Position numbers and translations under genes: made by a program
Assembly: GCF_965641715.1 (NCBI RefSeq)
Contig: NZ_OZ282455.1
DNA length: 64,000 nt
Reading direction: 5' to 3' (one strand)
Source: Escherichia coli
GTDB lineage: Bacteria > Pseudomonadota > Gammaproteobacteria > Enterobacterales > Enterobacteriaceae
Notes under the pieces: model-generated
What the model was told of the DNA's origin: nothing
Database searches by the model: none
Seen by the model: the letters and a program-made list of their open reading frames with translations, nothing else
Part shown: piece after piece, positions 1 to 27,391 of the stretch
How the letters are laid out: each line of letters opens with the position of its first letter
Position numbering within the stretch: position 1 is the stretch's first letter

Positions 1-1077
1 GTGTATAAATACACGGCACAATCGCTCCGCCATAAGCGACAGCTTGTGGCAGGTCTGAAGAATACTCCATATAACGCAGTACACTGGAGTCAGTTAGCAC
101 CCGAAGAGCAGATCCGTTTCTGGGAAGACTATGAAGCGGGAAGGGCGACCACTTTCCTGGTTGAACCGGAAAGGAAGCGCACGAAGCGTCGTCGTGGTGA
201 GCACTCCACCAAACCCAAATGCGAAAATCCGTCCTGGTATCGTCCTGAGCGCTATAAGGCGCTGAGCGGGCAGCTCGGGCACGCCTACAACCGTCTGGTG
301 AAAAAGGACCCGGTGACCGGCGAGCAGAGCCTGCGCATGCACATGTCTCTGCATCCTTTTTACGTGCAGAAACGAACGTATGCCGGTCGCAAATATGCTT
401 TCCGTCCGGAAAAACAACGCCTCCTCGATGCCGTCTGGCCGGTTCTGGTCAGCTTCAGTGATGCGGGCACACATACCGTAGGCATGAGTGTTTCCCGTCT
501 GGCCAGAGAAATCAGCCCGAAAGACAGCAAGGGGAAGGTTATTCCGGAACTGGAAGTGACGGTCTCCCGCCTTTCCCGTTTGCTGGCCGAACAGGTACGT
601 TTTGGTGTGCTGGGTGTTTCAGATGAAACCCTGTGGGACCGTGAAACCCGCCAGCGTCTGCCACGCTACGTCTGGATAACACCGGCAGGCTGGCAGATGC
701 TGGGCGTCGACATGGTAAAACTTCACGAACAGCAGCAGAAACGACTGCGTGAAAGTGAAATCCGCCAGCAGCTCATTCGGGAAGGTGTTCTGCGTGAGGA
801 TGAAGATATCTCCGTACATGCGGCCAGAAAACGCTGGTATCTGCAGCGCAGTCAGGATGCGCTGAAACACCGTCGTGCGAAAGCAGCAGCCAGTAAGCGC
901 GCCAGACGCCTGAAGAAACTGCCTGCCGACCAGCAGATTCATGAGATGGCAGAGTATCTCAGGAAGCGTCTGCCTCCGGATGAAGCCTATTTTTGTTCCG
1001 ATGACCATCTGAAGCGAATGGCCATCAGGGAGTTGCGTCAGCTTGAACTGACGCTGGCTGCCCCGCCACCGCACTAG
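1..1077 (+). CDS. plasmid replication initiation protein (IncFII-RepA/RepZ-like family); 5' end may lie upstream of window
   Basis: ORF begins at window edge (GTG), 358 aa, basic C-terminus; followed by ~900 bp non-coding origin-like region with DnaA box; family assignment by motif-level resemblance only. Confidence 0.5.
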   Translation: MYKYTAQSLRHKRQLVAGLKNTPYNAVHWSQLAPEEQIRFWEDYEAGRATTFLVEPERKRTKRRRGEHSTKPKCENPSWYRPERYKALSGQLGHAYNRLVKKDPVTGEQSLRMHMSLHPFYVQKRTYAGRKYAFRPEKQRLLDAVWPVLVSFSDAGTHTVGMSVSRLAREISPKDSKGKVIPELEVTVSRLSRLLAEQVRFGVLGVSDETLWDRETRQRLPRYVWITPAGWQMLGVDMVKLHEQQQKRLRESEIRQQLIREGVLREDEDISVHAARKRWYLQRSQDALKHRRAKAAASKRARRLKKLPADQQIHEMAEYLRKRLPPDEAYFCSDDHLKRMAIRELRQLELTLAAPPPH

Positions 1078-20889: not shown

Positions 20890-22023
20890 ATGCATTTTTA
20901 TGTGGATGAAACCGGTCATACCGGTCCCAATCTTTTTGACCGTACCCAGCCTGTGCTTTCCTACGGTGTGCTTTCCTCACCGGATGACCTGGACAAGGTT
21001 GCCGAAGCCGATCTTGCTGCCTTGCGTAAGAAACTGGGAGTGCAGCGCCTGCACGCCGCAGAGCTTGGCATGCACCGCCTTGATGAGGTGGTTGATACGC
21101 TGCTTGTCCTGCAAAAGAAGCACCGGATACGGTTTGATGTCTGGCAGGTCGTTAAACGGGATCACGCCATTATTTCGTTCTTCGATCAGGTGTTCGATCA
21201 GGGGATGAATCCTGCAGTGCCCAGGGTTGCCTACTGGACCCCCTTTCGTTACCCGCTGCTACTGAATCTGGCAAGCCTGTTCGATAATGAGCTGGCTGAA
21301 AAAGCGTGGCGTGCCCGCCTCGAAGCCCATGATGGAAGGTCCTCATCTCTGTTCAGTGAGGTCTGCAGTGAGCTGCTTGCGCGCGCTCATACCCTGGGGG
21401 ACCGCCGTTACATTGAATTGATTACCGATGCGTTGTCCTGGGCGATGACCCACTTTGACGAACTGGGATATAACTGCAAAACCGGTAAACAAAAGCTGCA
21501 GATCATGCCCAATATGGTTGGATTTCAGTTCGTATTGCGCGGTATCTGTTCCCGCCTGGGAGCACCAAATCGCAAAGCCGACATCGTTGTGGACCAGCAG
21601 TCACAGTTCAACACCACCCAGCGGGAGCTGAGGGAGTTCTATTACCAGATACGTGAGATGCCGTGGGCACACGGTCCCGGTTTACCGGTCATGGATGTGA
21701 CGAACATGCCGGCTGAACCGCTGGTCTTCCAGTCGGGTACAAAAAGTGCAGGGCTGGAGCTGGTTGATATATATCTCTGGATCTTCAAACGCTTTATGGA
21801 AGGGAAGGAGTTAACCAGACCCCTTACCCGCCTGGTTTACACCAATCGCAATACCGGCAGGACGGACAGTGTCTCCCTTCAGTCGGTGGCTAAACGATCT
21901 AAGGAGTTTCTTGACAAACTGCAGGAGCCAACGGCAGAAATGATGAAAAAGGCGAGGGAATACCGGGATCAGGAAGAGGTAAGGCGGCTGGAACATCGGG
22001 TGCAAATCCTGCCGCCATCCTGA
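20890..22023 (+). CDS. DUF3800-like protein
   Basis: N-terminus MHFYVDETGHTG matches the Y(I/V)DE(S/T)G signature of DUF3800; RBS AAGGA upstream; six-frame ORF extends artificially to 20782. Confidence 0.45.
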   Translation: MHFYVDETGHTGPNLFDRTQPVLSYGVLSSPDDLDKVAEADLAALRKKLGVQRLHAAELGMHRLDEVVDTLLVLQKKHRIRFDVWQVVKRDHAIISFFDQVFDQGMNPAVPRVAYWTPFRYPLLLNLASLFDNELAEKAWRARLEAHDGRSSSLFSEVCSELLARAHTLGDRRYIELITDALSWAMTHFDELGYNCKTGKQKLQIMPNMVGFQFVLRGICSRLGAPNRKADIVVDQQSQFNTTQRELREFYYQIREMPWAHGPGLPVMDVTNMPAEPLVFQSGTKSAGLELVDIYLWIFKRFMEGKELTRPLTRLVYTNRNTGRTDSVSLQSVAKRSKEFLDKLQEPTAEMMKKAREYRDQEEVRRLEHRVQILPPS

Positions 22024-22181
22024 TCCGGCAGGTTGAGTACACACAAAAGTGGAAGCGGCCGCGACGGGATGATGCGTCTGTCCGGCATCTTCCGGAGGGC
22101 CAGAGCTCGAAATTCTGGCCGTACTTCACTTCTTCGTTGAAGCTCTATCTGTTCGCTGTGAGTCTCATATTTTTATTAAAA

Positions 22182-22922
22182 CTAAAGCAACTCATCAACA
22201 TAAGTCATGATGGAACGAACCAGATTTATGGCAAAACGGGCATCGGCTTCATTCAGCAAAGTTTCAGTAGGATGGGCCATACTGTAATTGTTGCGCAGGT
22301 TATTGATTCCATGAAGTATTGCGGCAGAAGACTTCAACATTTTAAACACATCTTCATTTCTTCCATCATCCGGCAGAGCCTTAAGATGTGCAGTTATCAG
22401 GGAAAGCAATCCTGGTACATTGTTATTTGTACTATTGGTCGCAATTCCATGGTTTGCGCACATTTGTCTTAATGAAGCATGAAGAGCAGTATGGACACGA
22501 TCATAAGCCCGGTGTGGGCCATTTTTCTGAAGCAACACTTCCGCATCTTCTAAGGCCTGGTAAATATTTTCATTCACATTTTTCACTGGCGCTGCAGAAA
22601 CGTTTCTTTGTCCATTCTGATTAACAATGTCCTTTATTTCATTGAATAAATCATTATCGGTATTGCTGATATAGCGTTGAACATTATCCAGCGCCCAGAT
22701 TTTAGAAAGGTTATCAGCATCCCTGGCCAGGGTAGTTTCTATGGCAGCGATGGCCACCCCTTTCAGTTGATCGTTACCCCATTCAACATGCCTGTAGAAT
22801 TGATTCAGCCCCGCAGGAACGTCTTCACAATCGGTAACAGCAAAAAGCTCCCTCCAGTCACCGCTGTTAAATTTTAATGCCAGAACTTTGGCCAATTTTA
22901 TTTGAGAAACTTTATCCAACAT
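22182..22922 (-). CDS. HEPN / Abi_C-like protein (AbiJ-like candidate)
   Basis: C-terminal ...ILHGINNLRNNYSMAHP... fits HEPN R-x(4-6)-H motif in Abi_C-like context; last gene of a 4-gene operon. Confidence 0.45.
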   Translation of the reverse strand: MLDKVSQIKLAKVLALKFNSGDWRELFAVTDCEDVPAGLNQFYRHVEWGNDQLKGVAIAAIETTLARDADNLSKIWALDNVQRYISNTDNDLFNEIKDIVNQNGQRNVSAAPVKNVNENIYQALEDAEVLLQKNGPHRAYDRVHTALHASLRQMCANHGIATNSTNNNVPGLLSLITAHLKALPDDGRNEDVFKMLKSSAAILHGINNLRNNYSMAHPTETLLNEADARFAINLVRSIMTYVDELL

Positions 22923-22957
22923 ACTGGTCCCTAATAGTTTGTACTTCTCAGTTGAGA

Positions 22958-23746
22958 TTACCGGAACGGAGTCTCAGTAAATGAAATCCGTGTACTGGTA
23001 TACCCCCTGCTCTGCAACAGGAATGAAATCCCGTCCATCATCATTGCTCTGTTACTGCGGGGACCAATTCTGATGTTTGTCAGTGGCAGCTTGTCTTTTG
23101 CTTTAATGATCAGATATGGCACCAGACCGTTATCATTGACACGAAAATTGACACCCTCATAAGGGCTGTCCGGGAGGATTACCATCCGGAACTCCTGCTC
23201 CTCTTTGAAACCGTCATTCTTGAAAAAAGGCGGCAGGCTGTGTGCCAGTCTGGTTGCCTGAATCATCTCATGCATTACATCTGCATTTATTGCCGCCTGA
23301 ACCTGTGGCTGACGAAAGAAGGCGAGGATTTCGTTCCGGGCTTCAACCGTGGAATCCTCTTTGGTATAGAGTACCCGGTTTTTAAACACCTGATATTGAG
23401 TTAATTCCAGGGAGGCAAGCAGCTCTTCATCATCAAATTCCAGGCACACGCCCTGAGAGCTGCCATAACCCCGCCACTGGCTTAACAGGTCGGGTTCGAG
23501 ACAGAACGACACGTTATAGACATGAGCAGCCCGGTGCATTCTGAAGTGCGTCAGTGCCTGTTCGATGAACTTCAGGGTTTTCGGGTTAAAGTCGTCCCTC
23601 AGGTACTGCAGGGCATTCTCAAGGCAGTTCATTCCGTGAGTCAGCTCATTGCTGTCATTGAGGAAGGAAAAGTGCGTCGCCCACAGTGAGCCTGATTCGA
23701 TGATGCCCTTCAGTCCGTTCAGGTCAGTGTAATGATAAATCTTCAT
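22958..23746 (-). CDS. DUF2971-like protein
   Basis: N-terminus MKIYHYTDLNGLKGIIESGSLWATHFSFLNDSNE matches DUF2971 signature (HYT ... LW ... LND..E); ATG overlaps upstream stop (ATGA). Confidence 0.5.
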   Translation of the reverse strand: MKIYHYTDLNGLKGIIESGSLWATHFSFLNDSNELTHGMNCLENALQYLRDDFNPKTLKFIEQALTHFRMHRAAHVYNVSFCLEPDLLSQWRGYGSSQGVCLEFDDEELLASLELTQYQVFKNRVLYTKEDSTVEARNEILAFFRQPQVQAAINADVMHEMIQATRLAHSLPPFFKNDGFKEEQEFRMVILPDSPYEGVNFRVNDNGLVPYLIIKAKDKLPLTNIRIGPRSNRAMMMDGISFLLQSRGYTSTRISFTETPFR

Positions 23747-24363
23747 CTGGCAGCCTCCTGACTGTCCGGGCCCTGTTCGCACTCAGTTTTCTGCATGTCA
23801 GACAGAAACGGGAACGCCTTAAAAGCGGCTTCCCTTGCTTCTTCTATGGACTGTTCCCAGGCCTGCCAATCCGGATCTGCCGCCAGCGTTTCCTCCGCGG
23901 TATCGCGTAACCAGGCATACAGCGTATCGCCACCATCGAGATCAACCTGGCGGGTTTTTACAGGGCCTTCATGCTTCATGATATTGCGTAACAGCTTACC
24001 AAGCTGCCCGTCAGACTCGACAGGTTCGGCAGGAATGTAGTCCGGATATTCGTCGAACTGGTCCAGCGTCAGATCGGTGTACTCCCCGTCCAGCAATACG
24101 ATGACATGCGCGTGAACCGTTGAGTTTTCCGCTTCATGAAAGTCTGCGTTCCCCTGCATAAAAATGATGCAGGGATGGCATCCCTCAGTATCCATCAAAT
24201 ACTGCGCCAGTGTGTTGCTGGCCAGGTCGCAGCTGCCGTGCGGGAAATTCCTGTGTTCCGTTTCCCAGCGAGGAAACCGACGGCACTCGTCAGCCCGCTC
24301 ACCGGCGGCAAGCTCCAGCGCCCGTCGAAAGGCTTTTATACGTAATAGTCTTTCCGGTCTCAT
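23743..24363 (-). CDS. hypothetical protein (acidic C-terminus)
   Basis: 206 aa; start overlaps kfrA-like stop (ATGA) and stop overlaps DUF2971-like start. Confidence 0.4.
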   Translation of the reverse strand: MRPERLLRIKAFRRALELAAGERADECRRFPRWETEHRNFPHGSCDLASNTLAQYLMDTEGCHPCIIFMQGNADFHEAENSTVHAHVIVLLDGEYTDLTLDQFDEYPDYIPAEPVESDGQLGKLLRNIMKHEGPVKTRQVDLDGGDTLYAWLRDTAEETLAADPDWQAWEQSIEEAREAAFKAFPFLSDMQKTECEQGPDSQEAAR

Positions 24364-24971
24364 TTCTTCACCTTCCCGTCCTGGCGGGCCAGGGCCAGCA
24401 GTTCTGCCTGAAGCTGACGGCCGTCCTCCCGGGACTCCTTCAGCTCCGCCTTCGTGTCCTGCAGCTGTGCCGCCAGGTGTTCGCCGGTGGCGGTCAGGCG
24501 GGCCACCTGCTCGCGCAGCGGCAGCGCCTCCGCGCGCAGATCGCGCACCTCCTGCAGCAGGCGGTCACGCTCGGCCACCACCTCGCGCAGCACCGCCAGC
24601 TCGCTTTCCAGGGTGGCCACGCTCGCCAGCGCCTCATCCCGTTCCTGGTCGGCCTGTTCAATGTCCGCGTCGGCCTGCTCGCGCGCCGCCAGGGTCCCGG
24701 CTTCAGCCTGCCTGACGGCCGCCTGCCACAGCAGCCCCAGCTGGCCGGTCAGGAGCTCTGCCAGCTCCGGCGGCAGGGGCGTGGTCTGCTCAGAGGCCTG
24801 CTCGCGCCGTCGGGCGCGGAACGCGCGCATTACCGGGGAGATATGCGACAGGGAGCCGCCGCCGAGGTGCTGGCGCACCTGCTCGTTGGTCGGGTTCAGG
24901 GTGCCGGCGGCGATCAGGGCGGCAGCGGCGTCTTCAATGCGGCGGACGGTGTCCGGGGAGAGGGTGGTCAT
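24360..24971 (-). CDS. KfrA-like coiled-coil DNA-binding protein
   Basis: N-terminal ...TVRRIEDAAAALIAAGTLNPTNEQVRQHLGGGSLSHISPVMRAF... resembles KfrA N-domain, followed by long Ala/Glu/Leu-rich coiled coil. Confidence 0.5.
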   Translation of the reverse strand: MTTLSPDTVRRIEDAAAALIAAGTLNPTNEQVRQHLGGGSLSHISPVMRAFRARRREQASEQTTPLPPELAELLTGQLGLLWQAAVRQAEAGTLAAREQADADIEQADQERDEALASVATLESELAVLREVVAERDRLLQEVRDLRAEALPLREQVARLTATGEHLAAQLQDTKAELKESREDGRQLQAELLALARQDGKVKK

Positions 24972-24974
24972 GGT

Positions 24975-25110
24975 CTGGCTCCGTTTTTACAGGGAATGAC
25001 GTCATCGTACGCCCGGTGTAAAAAATACACAATACACAAAATACAGTTAATACATACAATACAATAAATACATATCGTACATACAATACAGTATGTACAT
25101 ACACGCCTTC
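24975..25110. promoter_or_regulatory. promoter region with reiterated ATACA/TACAA motifs upstream of kfrA-like operon
   Basis: ...aatacacaatacacaaaatacagttaatacatacaatacaataaatacatatcgtacatacaatacagtatgtacatacac... Confidence 0.35.
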
Positions 25111-25512
25111 CCTTTTCCCGTTCAGATCCGAAAACTCCAGGTTCCGGATCCGCGGATCCTTCGCTGCCGCCCGCTGGTCCGCTTTCACAGGATGTGGTGT
25201 CCCGCTCCGCTGACATGACACTGTATGTTGTGTTTCTTCCCGTGTTCCCGAGCCAGTCATCAGCGGCAGAAAAGATCGCTTCGCTTATTCACTGATCCTG
25301 ATTCACTTCCGGAAAGTTGTAAATACGCAGTAAATCGGATCATCTGAAAACCACTGTTCGATAATTTAATGGAGTGGTTATATGCCTGATTATTATTTCA
25401 ATATGTGAAATTCATTTTTGTGAAAGTCACTTTCTCAACAGAGTAGCACTCATCTGGCGATGATTGAGGTGTGGTAAAATTGCACGGCTAACTATTCAAC
25501 TGAGGAAATGAC

Positions 25513-25863
25513 ATGTTTACTGCATTCAATGAGAGAAATGATTTCAGTTATGCTTTTGAAAAAATTCGCAATGCGATTTCCGCGCCAGGAGAAAATAATG
25601 TTTATGCTGCCACAGAATTAGGTCTTGGCATTCTGCTCCGTAAATACGAGCAGTTTCGCCGGGAGCTGGATGTGGCCGGTGAGCTGGGAAACTGGGAATA
25701 CGATCTCGATACCTACAATCACTGTATTGCGGTGCTGCAACGTTACTTCACTGGCAATCCATCCGGACTGACAGAACGTGACGCCCGGATTTACAGTCAG
25801 TACCTGCAGACTGAGCACAAAGGGTTTGTGAAGCTGGCTGAAGAACTGGCGGCTGACCGCTGA
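25513..25863 (+). CDS. hypothetical protein
   Basis: 116-aa ORF; forms pair with downstream 202-aa ORF. Confidence 0.35.
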   Translation: MFTAFNERNDFSYAFEKIRNAISAPGENNVYAATELGLGILLRKYEQFRRELDVAGELGNWEYDLDTYNHCIAVLQRYFTGNPSGLTERDARIYSQYLQTEHKGFVKLAEELAADR

Positions 25864-25932
25864 ATACATACAGTAGGCGGGATTTCCGGATAAGGTACCG
25901 AACCGGGGCTGTTAAAAGATTCTGGAGTTGAA

Positions 25933-26541
25933 ATGAAAAAGGGAAAAACGTTAGAACCGGGGCTGCTGGCCAGCGACAGCGACTGGCACAATAATGCCTG
26001 CCTGAATTACATGCCGGATCATGGTACAGCTTACACCGAAGGTTACAGGCGAGCTGCTGATATTCTGATTAACCACATTGATGAATCCGGGCGGGACCAG
26101 GATTTTCTGGTTTATCCGGTGTTGTTTCTCTACCGACATCACTTGGAGCTCCTTATCAAACAAATTATCGGACTGGCCCTTGCACTGGCAGAAGACCCGG
26201 ATAAACACCAGTACAAAAAAGATGACCATAACCTGAATAATCTATGGCCGCTGGCACAAAAGCTGATCCTGGAAGTTGATGACAGCTACCGGCCTTCCGA
26301 TTTTAAAATCGTCAAAGAGGTGGTTAAAGCTCTTCACCAAGCGGATGAACGGGCGACAGATTTCCGATATGCCAGGAGAAATGACGGCACCCGGAGCCTT
26401 GAAGGAATTCATTACGTCAACACCCGCCGCTTTGGGGAAAAAATGGGAGAGGCTTCCGATTTACTTGACGGGGTCGACAATGGCCTCCGGTACCTGCTGG
26501 ACTGTAAAGCCGAATGGAATCAAATTCTGGACAGCTTCTGA
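25933..26541 (+). CDS. hypothetical protein
   Basis: 202-aa ORF; no domain recognised. Confidence 0.35.
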   Translation: MKKGKTLEPGLLASDSDWHNNACLNYMPDHGTAYTEGYRRAADILINHIDESGRDQDFLVYPVLFLYRHHLELLIKQIIGLALALAEDPDKHQYKKDDHNLNNLWPLAQKLILEVDDSYRPSDFKIVKEVVKALHQADERATDFRYARRNDGTRSLEGIHYVNTRRFGEKMGEASDLLDGVDNGLRYLLDCKAEWNQILDSF

Positions 26542-26608
26542 CAGCCAGAAACGGCGCGAAAAATCCATCAGACTTACCTGAACAACTAATGATACTGAGA
26601 TACCGATC

Positions 26609-27391
26609 ATGACTGGCCTCATACCTTCAGCTACTTCTCAGGGCCCAATGGCCGCCCTGCCAGTGACCATCGACTATCCCGCAGCACTGGCCTTGCGGCA
26701 GATGGCGCTCGTTCAGGACGAACTACCGAAATACCTGCTGGCGCCGGAAGTGAGCGCCCTGCTCCACTATGTGCCCGATCTGCACCGTAAGATGCTGCTG
26801 GCCACCCTCTGGAATACGGGCGCCCGCATTAACGAGGCGCTGGCGCTTACTCGAGGGGATTTTTCGCTGGCACCGCCATATCCGTTCGTACAGCTGGCCA
26901 CGCTGAAGCAACGTGCCGAGAAGGCTGCCAGAACAGCAGGACGTCTGCCCGCCGGCAGTCAGGCCCATCGTCTGGTTCCGCTATCAGACAGCCAGTACGT
27001 GAACCAGTTGGAAATGATGGTGGCCACGCTGAAGATTCCGCTCGAGCGACGTAATAAGCGTACCGGCAGAACCGAAAAGGCGCGTATCTGGGAGGTCACT
27101 GACCGGACGGTACGGACCTGGCTGAATGAAGCAGTGGAGAATGCGGCCGCTGACGGGGTGTCATTCTCTGTGCCGGTTACCCCACATACTTTCCGCCATT
27201 CCTACGCGATGCATATGCTGTATGCTGGTATTCCGCTGAAGGTGCTGCAGAGCCTGATGGGGCACAAGTCGATTAGTTCGACAGAGGTGTACACGAAGGT
27301 GTTTGCGCTCGATGTGGCAGCAAGGCACAGGGTGCAGTTTTCGATGCCTGAGTCCGATGCTGTCACAATGCTGAAAAACAGACACGCATAA
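26609..27391 (+). CDS. tyrosine site-specific recombinase (ResD/XerD-like multimer resolvase)
   Basis: C-terminal catalytic region ...HTFRHSYAMHMLYAGIPLKVLQSLMGHKSISSTEVYT... with conserved R, H-x-x-R and Y. Confidence 0.75.
   Translation: MTGLIPSATSQGPMAALPVTIDYPAALALRQMALVQDELPKYLLAPEVSALLHYVPDLHRKMLLATLWNTGARINEALALTRGDFSLAPPYPFVQLATLKQRAEKAARTAGRLPAGSQAHRLVPLSDSQYVNQLEMMVATLKIPLERRNKRTGRTEKARIWEVTDRTVRTWLNEAVENAAADGVSFSVPVTPHTFRHSYAMHMLYAGIPLKVLQSLMGHKSISSTEVYTKVFALDVAARHRVQFSMPESDAVTMLKNRHA

Follow-up and report, generated by a model that had tools for sequence, protein, structure and literature searches.

A probably composite operon on an I-complex plasmid of Escherichia coli: a KfrA-type pair followed by two putative abortive-infection genes

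In a stretch of 64,000 nucleotides (nt) of Escherichia coli DNA (contig NZ_OZ282455.1 of RefSeq assembly GCF_965641715.1; this whole stretch is called the window below), four genes of the minus strand, g1 to g4, follow closely upon each other (Table 1). We conclude that this locus is probably a composite plasmid operon, in which a KfrA backbone pair, g1 and g2, shares a promoter with two autonomous abortive-infection (Abi) genes, g3 and g4. The first-pass annotation of the locus, made from the sequence alone, had seen a candidate defence or addiction module. Of this description a defence role is supported for g3 and g4, by homology and by the hotspot contexts of their relatives; the part that we do not retain is that of one integrated or addiction module.

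All components are members of known families, and nothing in the operon lies outside known kinds. The earlier remark that none of the four genes has an assigned function is outdated, because RefSeq annotates three of them and a domain combination matching this cluster has been described (BMC Genomics 2025, PMC12522546). What we add is the RA3-type KfrA operator, the fold placement of g2 together with its conserved triad, the DarT-level fold match of g3, the evidence for the composite nature of the operon, the recombinase-adjacent cargo slot in which it lies, and a likely mis-annotated start of g3.

Results

Distribution of the four genes

The composite reading follows from four observations: kfrA-g2 occurs without g3-g4, homologues of g3 and g4 stand alone, the guanine-plus-cytosine (GC) content falls in steps along the operon (g1 72%, g2 55%, g3 49%, g4 42%), and the synonymous divergence (dS) differs between the genes. 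The census was taken in PLSDB, which holds 72,556 plasmids. Full-length copies of g1 and g2 are present in 498 and 420 of these, full-length copies of g3 and g4 in 92 and 91, and 79 plasmids hold at least 80% of the whole region. In about 340 pO157-like plasmids g3 is reduced to a 64-codon stub while kfrA-g2 is retained, and about 385 plasmids, IncF for the most part, retain no more of g4 than its 3′ end, which IS1 has cut in the single case looked at. Klebsiella-type plasmids have a kfrA (93% amino acid identity) that overlaps a g2 variant, g2′ (48%, 268 amino acids (aa)), followed directly by a convergent DUF3800 gene (93%), without g3-g4; this DUF3800 gene is the same one that comes after g4 in the window. 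Further pairs of a kfrA remnant and g2 are found in a chromosomal island. On the chromosome of Escherichia sp. ESNIH1 (L014, 1907-8153) we note an intact kfrA and two g2-like genes, one of them right after a kfrA remnant, in an island that also carries MazE/PIN, DUF4145 (HEPN) and a HEPN_RES_NTD1-RES gene, which is a defence-island-like context.

The homologues of g3 at 43-56% identity are monocistronic, have upstream gaps of their own and occur in six different contexts. One lies in a P2-type prophage, between portal and gpA, which is the old/tin cargo position; others are found in int/AlpA islands, in D5-primase islands, and on plasmids, where they adjoin the same ResD-like recombinase as in the window. 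We found no KfrA, g2 or adjacent Abi_C gene beside the homologues of g3 examined in this identity range, and no DUF2971, KfrA or g2 neighbours of g4 homologues at 44-76% identity. The four genes had been proposed to form a single module, and this is not supported: kfrA-g2 is conserved without g3-g4, and the g3 and g4 homologues (43-76% identity) never adjoin KfrA, g2 or each other.

Three candidates for a hidden association were rejected. Genes upstream of stand-alone DUF2971 genes show no similarity to g2 by BLASTP; a 205-aa gene that lies between two DUF2971 genes of satellite-like islands does not resemble g4; and an Abi_C gene located 2 kb from a DUF2971 gene in Enterobacter islands is not an orthologue of g4, being 23% identical, oppositely oriented and non-adjacent, so that we treat this last pair as island co-residence. 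The satellite-like islands are metagenomic (L023-L026, 5001-7580) and carry DUF2971 genes of 269 and 253 aa that flank an unrelated gene of 205-208 aa, next to a D5-type primase, possibly a DUF2971 arrangement of three genes that differs from the operon of the window.

Comparing IncI with IncF copies (L039-L041), dS is 0.04-0.10 for g3, 0.15 for g1 and 0.26-0.36 for g2 and g4. This 3-8 fold spread indicates separate recombination histories, with gene-scale recombination within the operon. The intact copies of the block are 88-99% identical at the nucleotide level, and because all of them are at least 88% identical we regard them as one lineage.

The predicted effectors g3 and g4

The assignment of g3 to DUF2971 is supported by Pfam PF11185 (E 1.7e-10, residues 90-188), which all of the more than 100 homologues of g3 carry; g3 also matches phrog_1762. 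The N-terminal signature from which the family had first been recognized (YHYT, LWAT and LNDSNE) is a genuine family trait, since H5, Y6 and T7, W22 and T24, and N30, D31 and E34 are invariant or at least 90% conserved in the g3 family. The structure model, with a predicted local distance difference test score (pLDDT) of 93, has a DarT/Tpt1-type fold for which DarT structures are the best fold matches. An H-Y-E(xE) triad has been described for the DUF2971 family (PMC12522546), and in our family alignment the corresponding residues of g3, His5, Tyr94, Glu183 and Glu185, are invariant. From the model we predict that g3 is a DarT-like ADP-ribosyltransferase. Profile searches of g3 and of g2 against PDB sequences gave nothing significant, so that for both proteins only the fold comparison is informative, and an NCBIfam search gave nothing for g2, g3 or g4. 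A tblastn search of g3 against 50,697 phage records returned three distant matches only (26-29% identity), which suggests that close relatives of g3 are not present in sequenced virulent or temperate phage records.

We place the start of g3 at ATG 23746, because AGGAGG lies 8 nt upstream and because 57 homologues, down to 30% identity, begin there with the N-terminal YHYT/LW.T/LND..E block conserved. The program-made list of open reading frames (ORFs) begins the gene at GTG 23782, and RefSeq often begins it 69 codons downstream of this ATG, giving a protein of 193 aa. This shorter call leaves a 200-bp 'gap' and drops the N-terminal motif, including the candidate catalytic His5. Probably, then, the RefSeq start of g3 is wrong in many records. 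The 193-aa call was made by PGAP, the Prokaryotic Genome Annotation Pipeline, in NZ_CP122641 (L001, 9959-10540), NZ_CP067236 (L039) and NZ_CP025905 (L041); GenBank CP057321 has the full call of 262 aa.

For g4, the proposed Abi_C/HEPN domain is found by Pfam PF14355 (E 9e-13, residues 176-242), and the N-terminus matches AbiJ_NTD5 (PF18865, E 3.9e-5, residues 8-76). The PADLOC model for AbiJ matches residues 77-242 (5.5e-8), and the RefSeq label is 'abortive infection family protein'. The R-x6-H motif that had been pointed out near the end of the protein is R210-x6-H217 (LRN....H, with N211), and it is invariant in 19 sequences of the comparison; the same residues are kept in an Abi_C protein that is only 20% identical. 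With KfrA_N in g1, described below, the three families named at first sight, KfrA_N, DUF2971 and Abi_C, all have significant profile matches. The close family of g4 is tiny, with 34 clusters at 90% identity, all of them enterobacterial, and we know of no AbiJ-NTD5 member with an assayed RNase activity or trigger. Profile scans of g1-g3 and of the flanking genes found no nucleotidyltransferase (MNT) domain. AbiJ itself is a validated single-gene Abi system for which an N-terminal sensor and a HEPN suicide RNase have been proposed, and the prototype of its NTD5 subgroup is the E. coli protein w0043 (PMC3710099).

The regulator g1, its putative operator and g2

Pfam KfrA_N (PF11740, E 1.2e-21) covers residues 10-125 of g1, which agrees with its first description as KfrA-like. 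The tail (residues about 95-197/200) gives many weak matches to coiled-coil families in Pfam and weak matches to SMC/Rad50 arms, and is predicted to be alpha-helical and coiled-coil-like. Upstream of g1, a repeat finder detects an array in which eight to nine repeats of 9 nt, of the form TGTAYNNNN, follow each other head to tail (Table 1). Two of these are exact copies of TGTATTGTA, and the exact and one-mismatch copies of this sequence cluster in the same interval. A phased 9-nt array of 5-9 copies is also present upstream of all nine other kfrA homologues that we compared, which lie on plasmids (IncF, IncI and others) and, in one case, in a chromosomal island. In plasmid RA3, TGTATTGTA is the experimentally mapped operator repeat of KfrA and overlaps the -35 element of kfrAp, and three or more repeats give more than 200-fold autorepression by KfrA (PMC7783346). 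Given an array of RA3-type repeats, we infer that the operon promoter lies within it and is repressed by g1. An inverted repeat, GATCCG-N14-CGGATC, stands at 25125-25150, about 150-175 nt upstream of g1 and close above the repeat array, and is kept in nine of ten kfrA loci; its function may be that of a second operator, or else it may terminate or insulate the divergent unit.

Searches with g2 gave no match in NCBIfam, PADLOC or PHROGs, and the Pfam scan returned only an insignificant YunG (E = 0.16). The AlphaFold model is confident (pLDDT 89, predicted template modelling score 0.83, from an alignment with 49 homologues) and a Foldseek search of the AlphaFold database with this model retrieves transglutaminase-like and McjB-like proteins. 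The predicted structure has a papain-like core fold, to which an N-terminal helix and a C-terminal helical bundle are added. Across the 49 homologues His86 is invariant, and Cys45, Asp97 and Asp101 are at least 90% conserved, in the right catalytic order, so Cys45-His86-Asp97 is a candidate triad. The family is small, with 278 representative clusters in 1.84 billion proteins, and its named members are nearly all enterobacterial. For the distant matches of the g2 profile NCBIfam was of no use, with one sub-threshold lasso B2 match and one QatA-like fusion. Because g2 tracks kfrA and not the effectors, we provisionally assign it as a KfrA-associated accessory enzyme.

Arrangement and selection

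The coordinates first given for the four genes match the ORF listing and the raw sequence exactly, and the genes are indeed arranged as a single tightly packed transcription unit: ATGA overlaps join g1 to g2 (24363-24360) and g2 to g3 (23746-23743), and 35 nt separate the stop of g3 from the start of g4. Such overlaps are common in operons and are not surprising alone. Shine-Dalgarno-like purine runs precede all four starts. Between IncI-type and IncF-type copies dN/dS is 0.05-0.29 and there are no indels in any of the four genes, which argues for purifying selection on all of them. Judged by their sequences, the four ORFs are real genes, and their layout suggests that they are co-transcribed.

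The plasmid and the cargo slot

Sequence comparison identifies the window as an I-complex (IncI-gamma/K-type) conjugative plasmid. A 3.3-kb region is 99.9% identical to E. coli conjugative IncI-gamma/K1 plasmids; with Salmonella plasmids it shares 95% of its length at 100% identity. Mapping the proteins of ColIb-P9 onto the window (Table 1) puts the operon into the variable region between repA and parA, at a distance of about 24 kb from oriT; the leading-region genes are on the other strand. In I-complex plasmids the repA-parA region is hyper-variable, and the abortive-infection gene ibfA maps there (PMC12111858). We considered whether a gene of the operon is the classical IncI1 ibfA and rejected this, IbfA being an unrelated ATPase-TOPRIM protein.

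Table 1. Features of the window: the operon, its putative operator and the plasmid genes around it.
Feature	Position (nt)	Strand	Size	Description
g1	24971-24360	-	203 aa	KfrA-type DNA-binding autoregulator, predicted
g2	24363-23743	-	206 aa	small transglutaminase/papain-like-fold protein, model-based
g3	23746-22958	-	262 aa	DUF2971, DarT/Tpt1-like ADP-ribosyltransferase fold
g4	22922-22182	-	246 aa	AbiJ family, AbiJ-NTD5 + Abi_C HEPN
putative KfrA operator/promoter array	25024..25103	-		53-132 nt upstream of g1 start
repA	46-1056			ColIb-P9 mapping
ProQ/FinO	about 16.6-17.2 kb			ColIb-P9 mapping
ydeA-like	18.7-19.3 kb			ColIb-P9 mapping
ydfA/ydeA homologues	18682-19526			one border of cargo stretch
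ResD-like tyrosine recombinase	26609-27391			ColIb-P9 mapping
ParM-like gene	about 28.7-29.6 kb			37% identical to ColIb-P9 ParM
impCAB + methylase	from about 30 kb			ColIb-P9 mapping
ssb, psiB, ardA	38-44 kb			ColIb-P9 mapping
nikA/oriT	48.8 kb			ColIb-P9 mapping

The roughly 7 kb from the ydfA/ydeA homologues to the ResD-like recombinase (19527-26608) behave as a variable cargo slot. The recombinase is 78-91% identical among the plasmids compared, and the neighbouring cargo varies. Specifically, the slot holds a DUF4238 gene and hypothetical genes in ColIb-P9, and an AAA ATPase, VapBC and a P-loop NTPase in R64; IncF plasmids carry ccdAB and an S-4TM effector pair beside a recombinase/integrase segment; and in yet other plasmids the slot is taken by a DUF2971 or AbiJ homologue that stands alone. 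IbfA lies just past ydeA/ydfA in R64, in pUA1135 and in an E. albertii plasmid that also bears the present operon.

A PADLOC search of six neighbour genes of the operon gave nothing significant. The DUF3800 gene (20890-22023, plus strand) is convergent with g4 and has no PADLOC match; its counterpart beside kfrA-g2′ in plasmids without g3-g4 is 93% identical, and it is frameshifted in one IncF plasmid (L017). A 229-aa ORF (19941-20630, minus strand), 97% conserved beside DUF3800 elsewhere, strongly matches phrog_30303 (2.7e-34), and Pfam and PADLOC searches with it gave nothing. Two plus-strand genes are divergent from the operon: 25513-25863 matches phrog_36524 over its full length (2.5e-76), and 25933-26541 has only a weak CARF-like PADLOC match (E 0.023) and nothing in Pfam. 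In IncF relatives ccdAB takes the place of these two genes.

Discussion

In the composite reading, which we think probable, transcription would start in the 9-nt array upstream of g1, and KfrA would bind the array and repress its own promoter, as RA3 KfrA does. All four genes would then be held low and under tight control, with a probable burst when the plasmid enters a KfrA-free cell. The conserved pair would consist of g1 and the translationally coupled g2, the latter as the accessory enzyme of KfrA, and g3 and g4 would be independently acting single-polypeptide abortive-infection effectors, appended to the operon. On infection, g3 would use NAD+ to ADP-ribosylate nucleic acid, either DNA as DarT does or RNA ends as Tpt1 does, and phage replication would be blocked. 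The NTD5 domain of g4 would restrain the HEPN RNase until a phage cue appears, after which cleavage of RNA would arrest the cell. Together the two effectors would give a layered, population-level protection of the host of the plasmid. We infer the enzymatic activities, targets, triggers and phage-defence phenotype of g3 and g4. A defence role is suggested for them because validated single-gene Abi systems (Aristaios, PMC11381338; AbiJ, PMC3710099) are homologous to them and because homologues occupy hotspots in P2 prophages, int/AlpA islands and plasmids; the other defence-type cargo that sibling plasmids carry in the same slot, and IbfA in the same region, also count for it.

Several points weigh against this picture. 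Aristaios and lactococcal AbiJ are distant, and the link to them is membership of a Pfam family only, from which a phenotype is not simply transferable. The ATGA coupling of g2 to both g1 and g3 is not explained by two independent passengers, and an antitoxin-free DarT-like toxin would need a mechanism of auto-inhibition. Since g3 or g4 is truncated in hundreds of plasmids they are dispensable, which fits defence cargo, and genes of little value as well. Neither within the operon nor behind it did we find a convincing terminator: consensus scans for terminators and promoters gave no excess over the shuffled expectation, and folding of the 3′ flank after g4 showed no U-tract terminator (z = -1.4). 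Finally, intact copies of the four-gene block, in unchanged order and free of indels, are present on replicons with differing flanks (IncI-gamma/K, IncFIB/FIC, IncFIA and an untyped one of Citrobacter), and a block that moves unbroken is also what an integrated system would give.

In such an integrated system g2, g3 and g4, with or without KfrA, would act jointly: g2 would process, modify or restrain the ADP-ribosyltransferase, the RNase or both, or would switch them on after sensing a phage cue; KfrA would be a dedicated regulator. The translational coupling of g1, g2 and g3, the gap of only 35 nt to g4 and the maintenance of the block on different replicons speak for it, as do the near-equal numbers of plasmids with full-length g3 and g4 (92 vs 91). 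The Klebsiella-type plasmids can be read in the same sense: there g3-g4 are missing and the identity of g2 falls to about 48%, against about 93% for kfrA and DUF3800, so that g2, g3 and g4 would have been exchanged as one cassette. However, the co-occurrence is confined to the one lineage of at least 88% nucleotide identity, and may be due to common descent; at deeper divergence g2, g3 and g4 are never together. Stand-alone DUF2971 homologues have no relative of g2 upstream, proteins of the g2 type are found with kfrA but without g3-g4, and also alone, and the 3-8 fold differences in dS point to separate histories. We therefore consider joint action unlikely. A KfrA-gated system seems quite improbable to us. 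In it autorepression would serve as the sensor, with a burst of expression when KfrA is absent, titrated or displaced (for example by conjugative entry, phage-induced DNA changes or a collapse in copy number), and g2 would covalently modify or process the ADP-ribosyltransferase, the AbiJ RNase or both to license them.

A role in plasmid conflict or establishment would have the ADP-ribosyltransferase and the RNase act on rival plasmids, on host defences, or on host or plasmid nucleic acid after conjugation, in the burst that follows entry into a KfrA-free cell. A KfrA-type autorepressed promoter does predict zygotic induction (extrapolated from PMC7783346), and an anti-defence set of the leading region (ardA, psiB, ssb and the methylase) is present elsewhere in the window. 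However, the operon lies outside that island, about 24 kb from nikA/oriT, on the far side of impCAB and the partition genes, and its strand is not that of the leading-region genes; because of this position and strand we give less weight to an anti-defence, leading-region reading. The homologues of g3 moreover sit in P2-prophage and satellite-type slots that are known for anti-phage cargo, and the only DUF2971 and AbiJ proteins that have been tested are anti-phage (PMC11381338, PMC3710099). Taken together, this makes a conflict role very unlikely.

The least probable account of those we weighed is addiction, in which the ADP-ribosyltransferase, the HEPN protein or both would be a stable toxin, neutralised by g2 or by KfrA repression, that stabilises the plasmid. 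DarT and many HEPN proteins are toxins of toxin-antitoxin systems, DarT structures are the top fold matches of g3, the genes are tightly coupled, and the locus lies among maintenance genes (the ResD-like recombinase, ParA, ParM, and ccdAB in relatives). However, Pfam scans of g1-g4 found no antitoxin-type partner, neither a macrodomain (DarG) nor an MNT, and the addiction part of the first-pass annotation is not supported. The neighbouring g2 has a transglutaminase-like fold, and the stand-alone homologues of g3 and g4 share no small adjacent partner. Transcriptional repression, for its part, cannot kill a cell once the genes themselves are gone, and the hundreds of plasmids that truncated g3 or g4 yet kept kfrA-g2 are hard to reconcile with a working addiction pair.

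If g3 and g4 do defend, common enterobacterial resistance and virulence plasmids of the IncI-complex and IncF groups carry an Abi effector pair with the potential to weaken phage therapy and to influence the range of phages tolerated by their hosts, as IbfA from the same region has already been shown to do. The composite operon, if we read it correctly, would also supply three tractable test cases: for a DarT-like ADP-ribosyltransferase of the DUF2971 family in Gram-negative bacteria, acting in the absence of an antitoxin, for the first testable AbiJ-NTD5 HEPN protein, and for defence cargo under a KfrA autorepressor. The slot from ydfA to the ResD-like recombinase can be recognised as a cargo hotspot. 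Were the KfrA-gated version true, it would represent a new regulatory logic, in which a cytoskeletal or segregation factor of a plasmid is tied to abortive infection.

Comparison with known systems

Like the KfrA proteins of RA3 (IncU) and of RK2 and R751 (IncP-1), g1 has a KfrA_N head, followed by a tail that is predicted to be long and helical, and adjoins replication and partition genes. Its putative operator of tandem 9-nt TGTATTGTA repeats is identical to the OK motif of RA3, although there are 8-9 repeats in a single orientation here as opposed to 5 in RA3, and g1 has 203 aa. The partner of g1 is transglutaminase-like, and not the all-helical KfrC or KfrB of those plasmids, and the cargo downstream consists of defence-type genes. 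As for g2 itself, it falls outside the sequence profiles of the named families to which protein-glutaminase, the SseI/PMT-C3 deamidases, LapG and McjB belong (e.g. Tox-PLDMTX, Transglut_core), and it has no secretion signal or toxin context.

With DarT, the DNA thymidine/guanosine ADP-ribosyltransferase of DarTG, g3 shares the fold at only 10-16% identity. It differs by large helical inserts, and the macrodomain antitoxin DarG was not found beside g3 or its stand-alone homologues. A further counterpart is Aristaios, the validated single-gene DUF2971 antiphage system of a lactococcal plasmid, a protein of 316 aa with an Abi-type phenotype (PMC11381338): g3 is also plasmid-borne and of Pfam DUF2971 with a predicted ADP-ribosyltransferase fold, and its homologues are likewise stand-alone genes. 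However, Aristaios is monocistronic and comes from Lactococcus, whereas the shorter g3 lies inside a KfrA operon, and the sequence identity is presumably low. IbfA, the ATPase-TOPRIM Abi protein of the IncI1 plasmids R64 and pUA1135 for which abortive infection was shown experimentally (PMC12111858), shares with the present operon the repA-parA variable region and the neighbouring ydeA/ydfA homologues, but it is an unrelated protein, and ibfA is not at that position in the window. The nearest likeness of g4 is to the AbiJ family, with which it has in common the Abi_C HEPN domain with its R..H motif, AbiJ_NTD5, the PADLOC AbiJ match and a predicted sensor-plus-RNase architecture.

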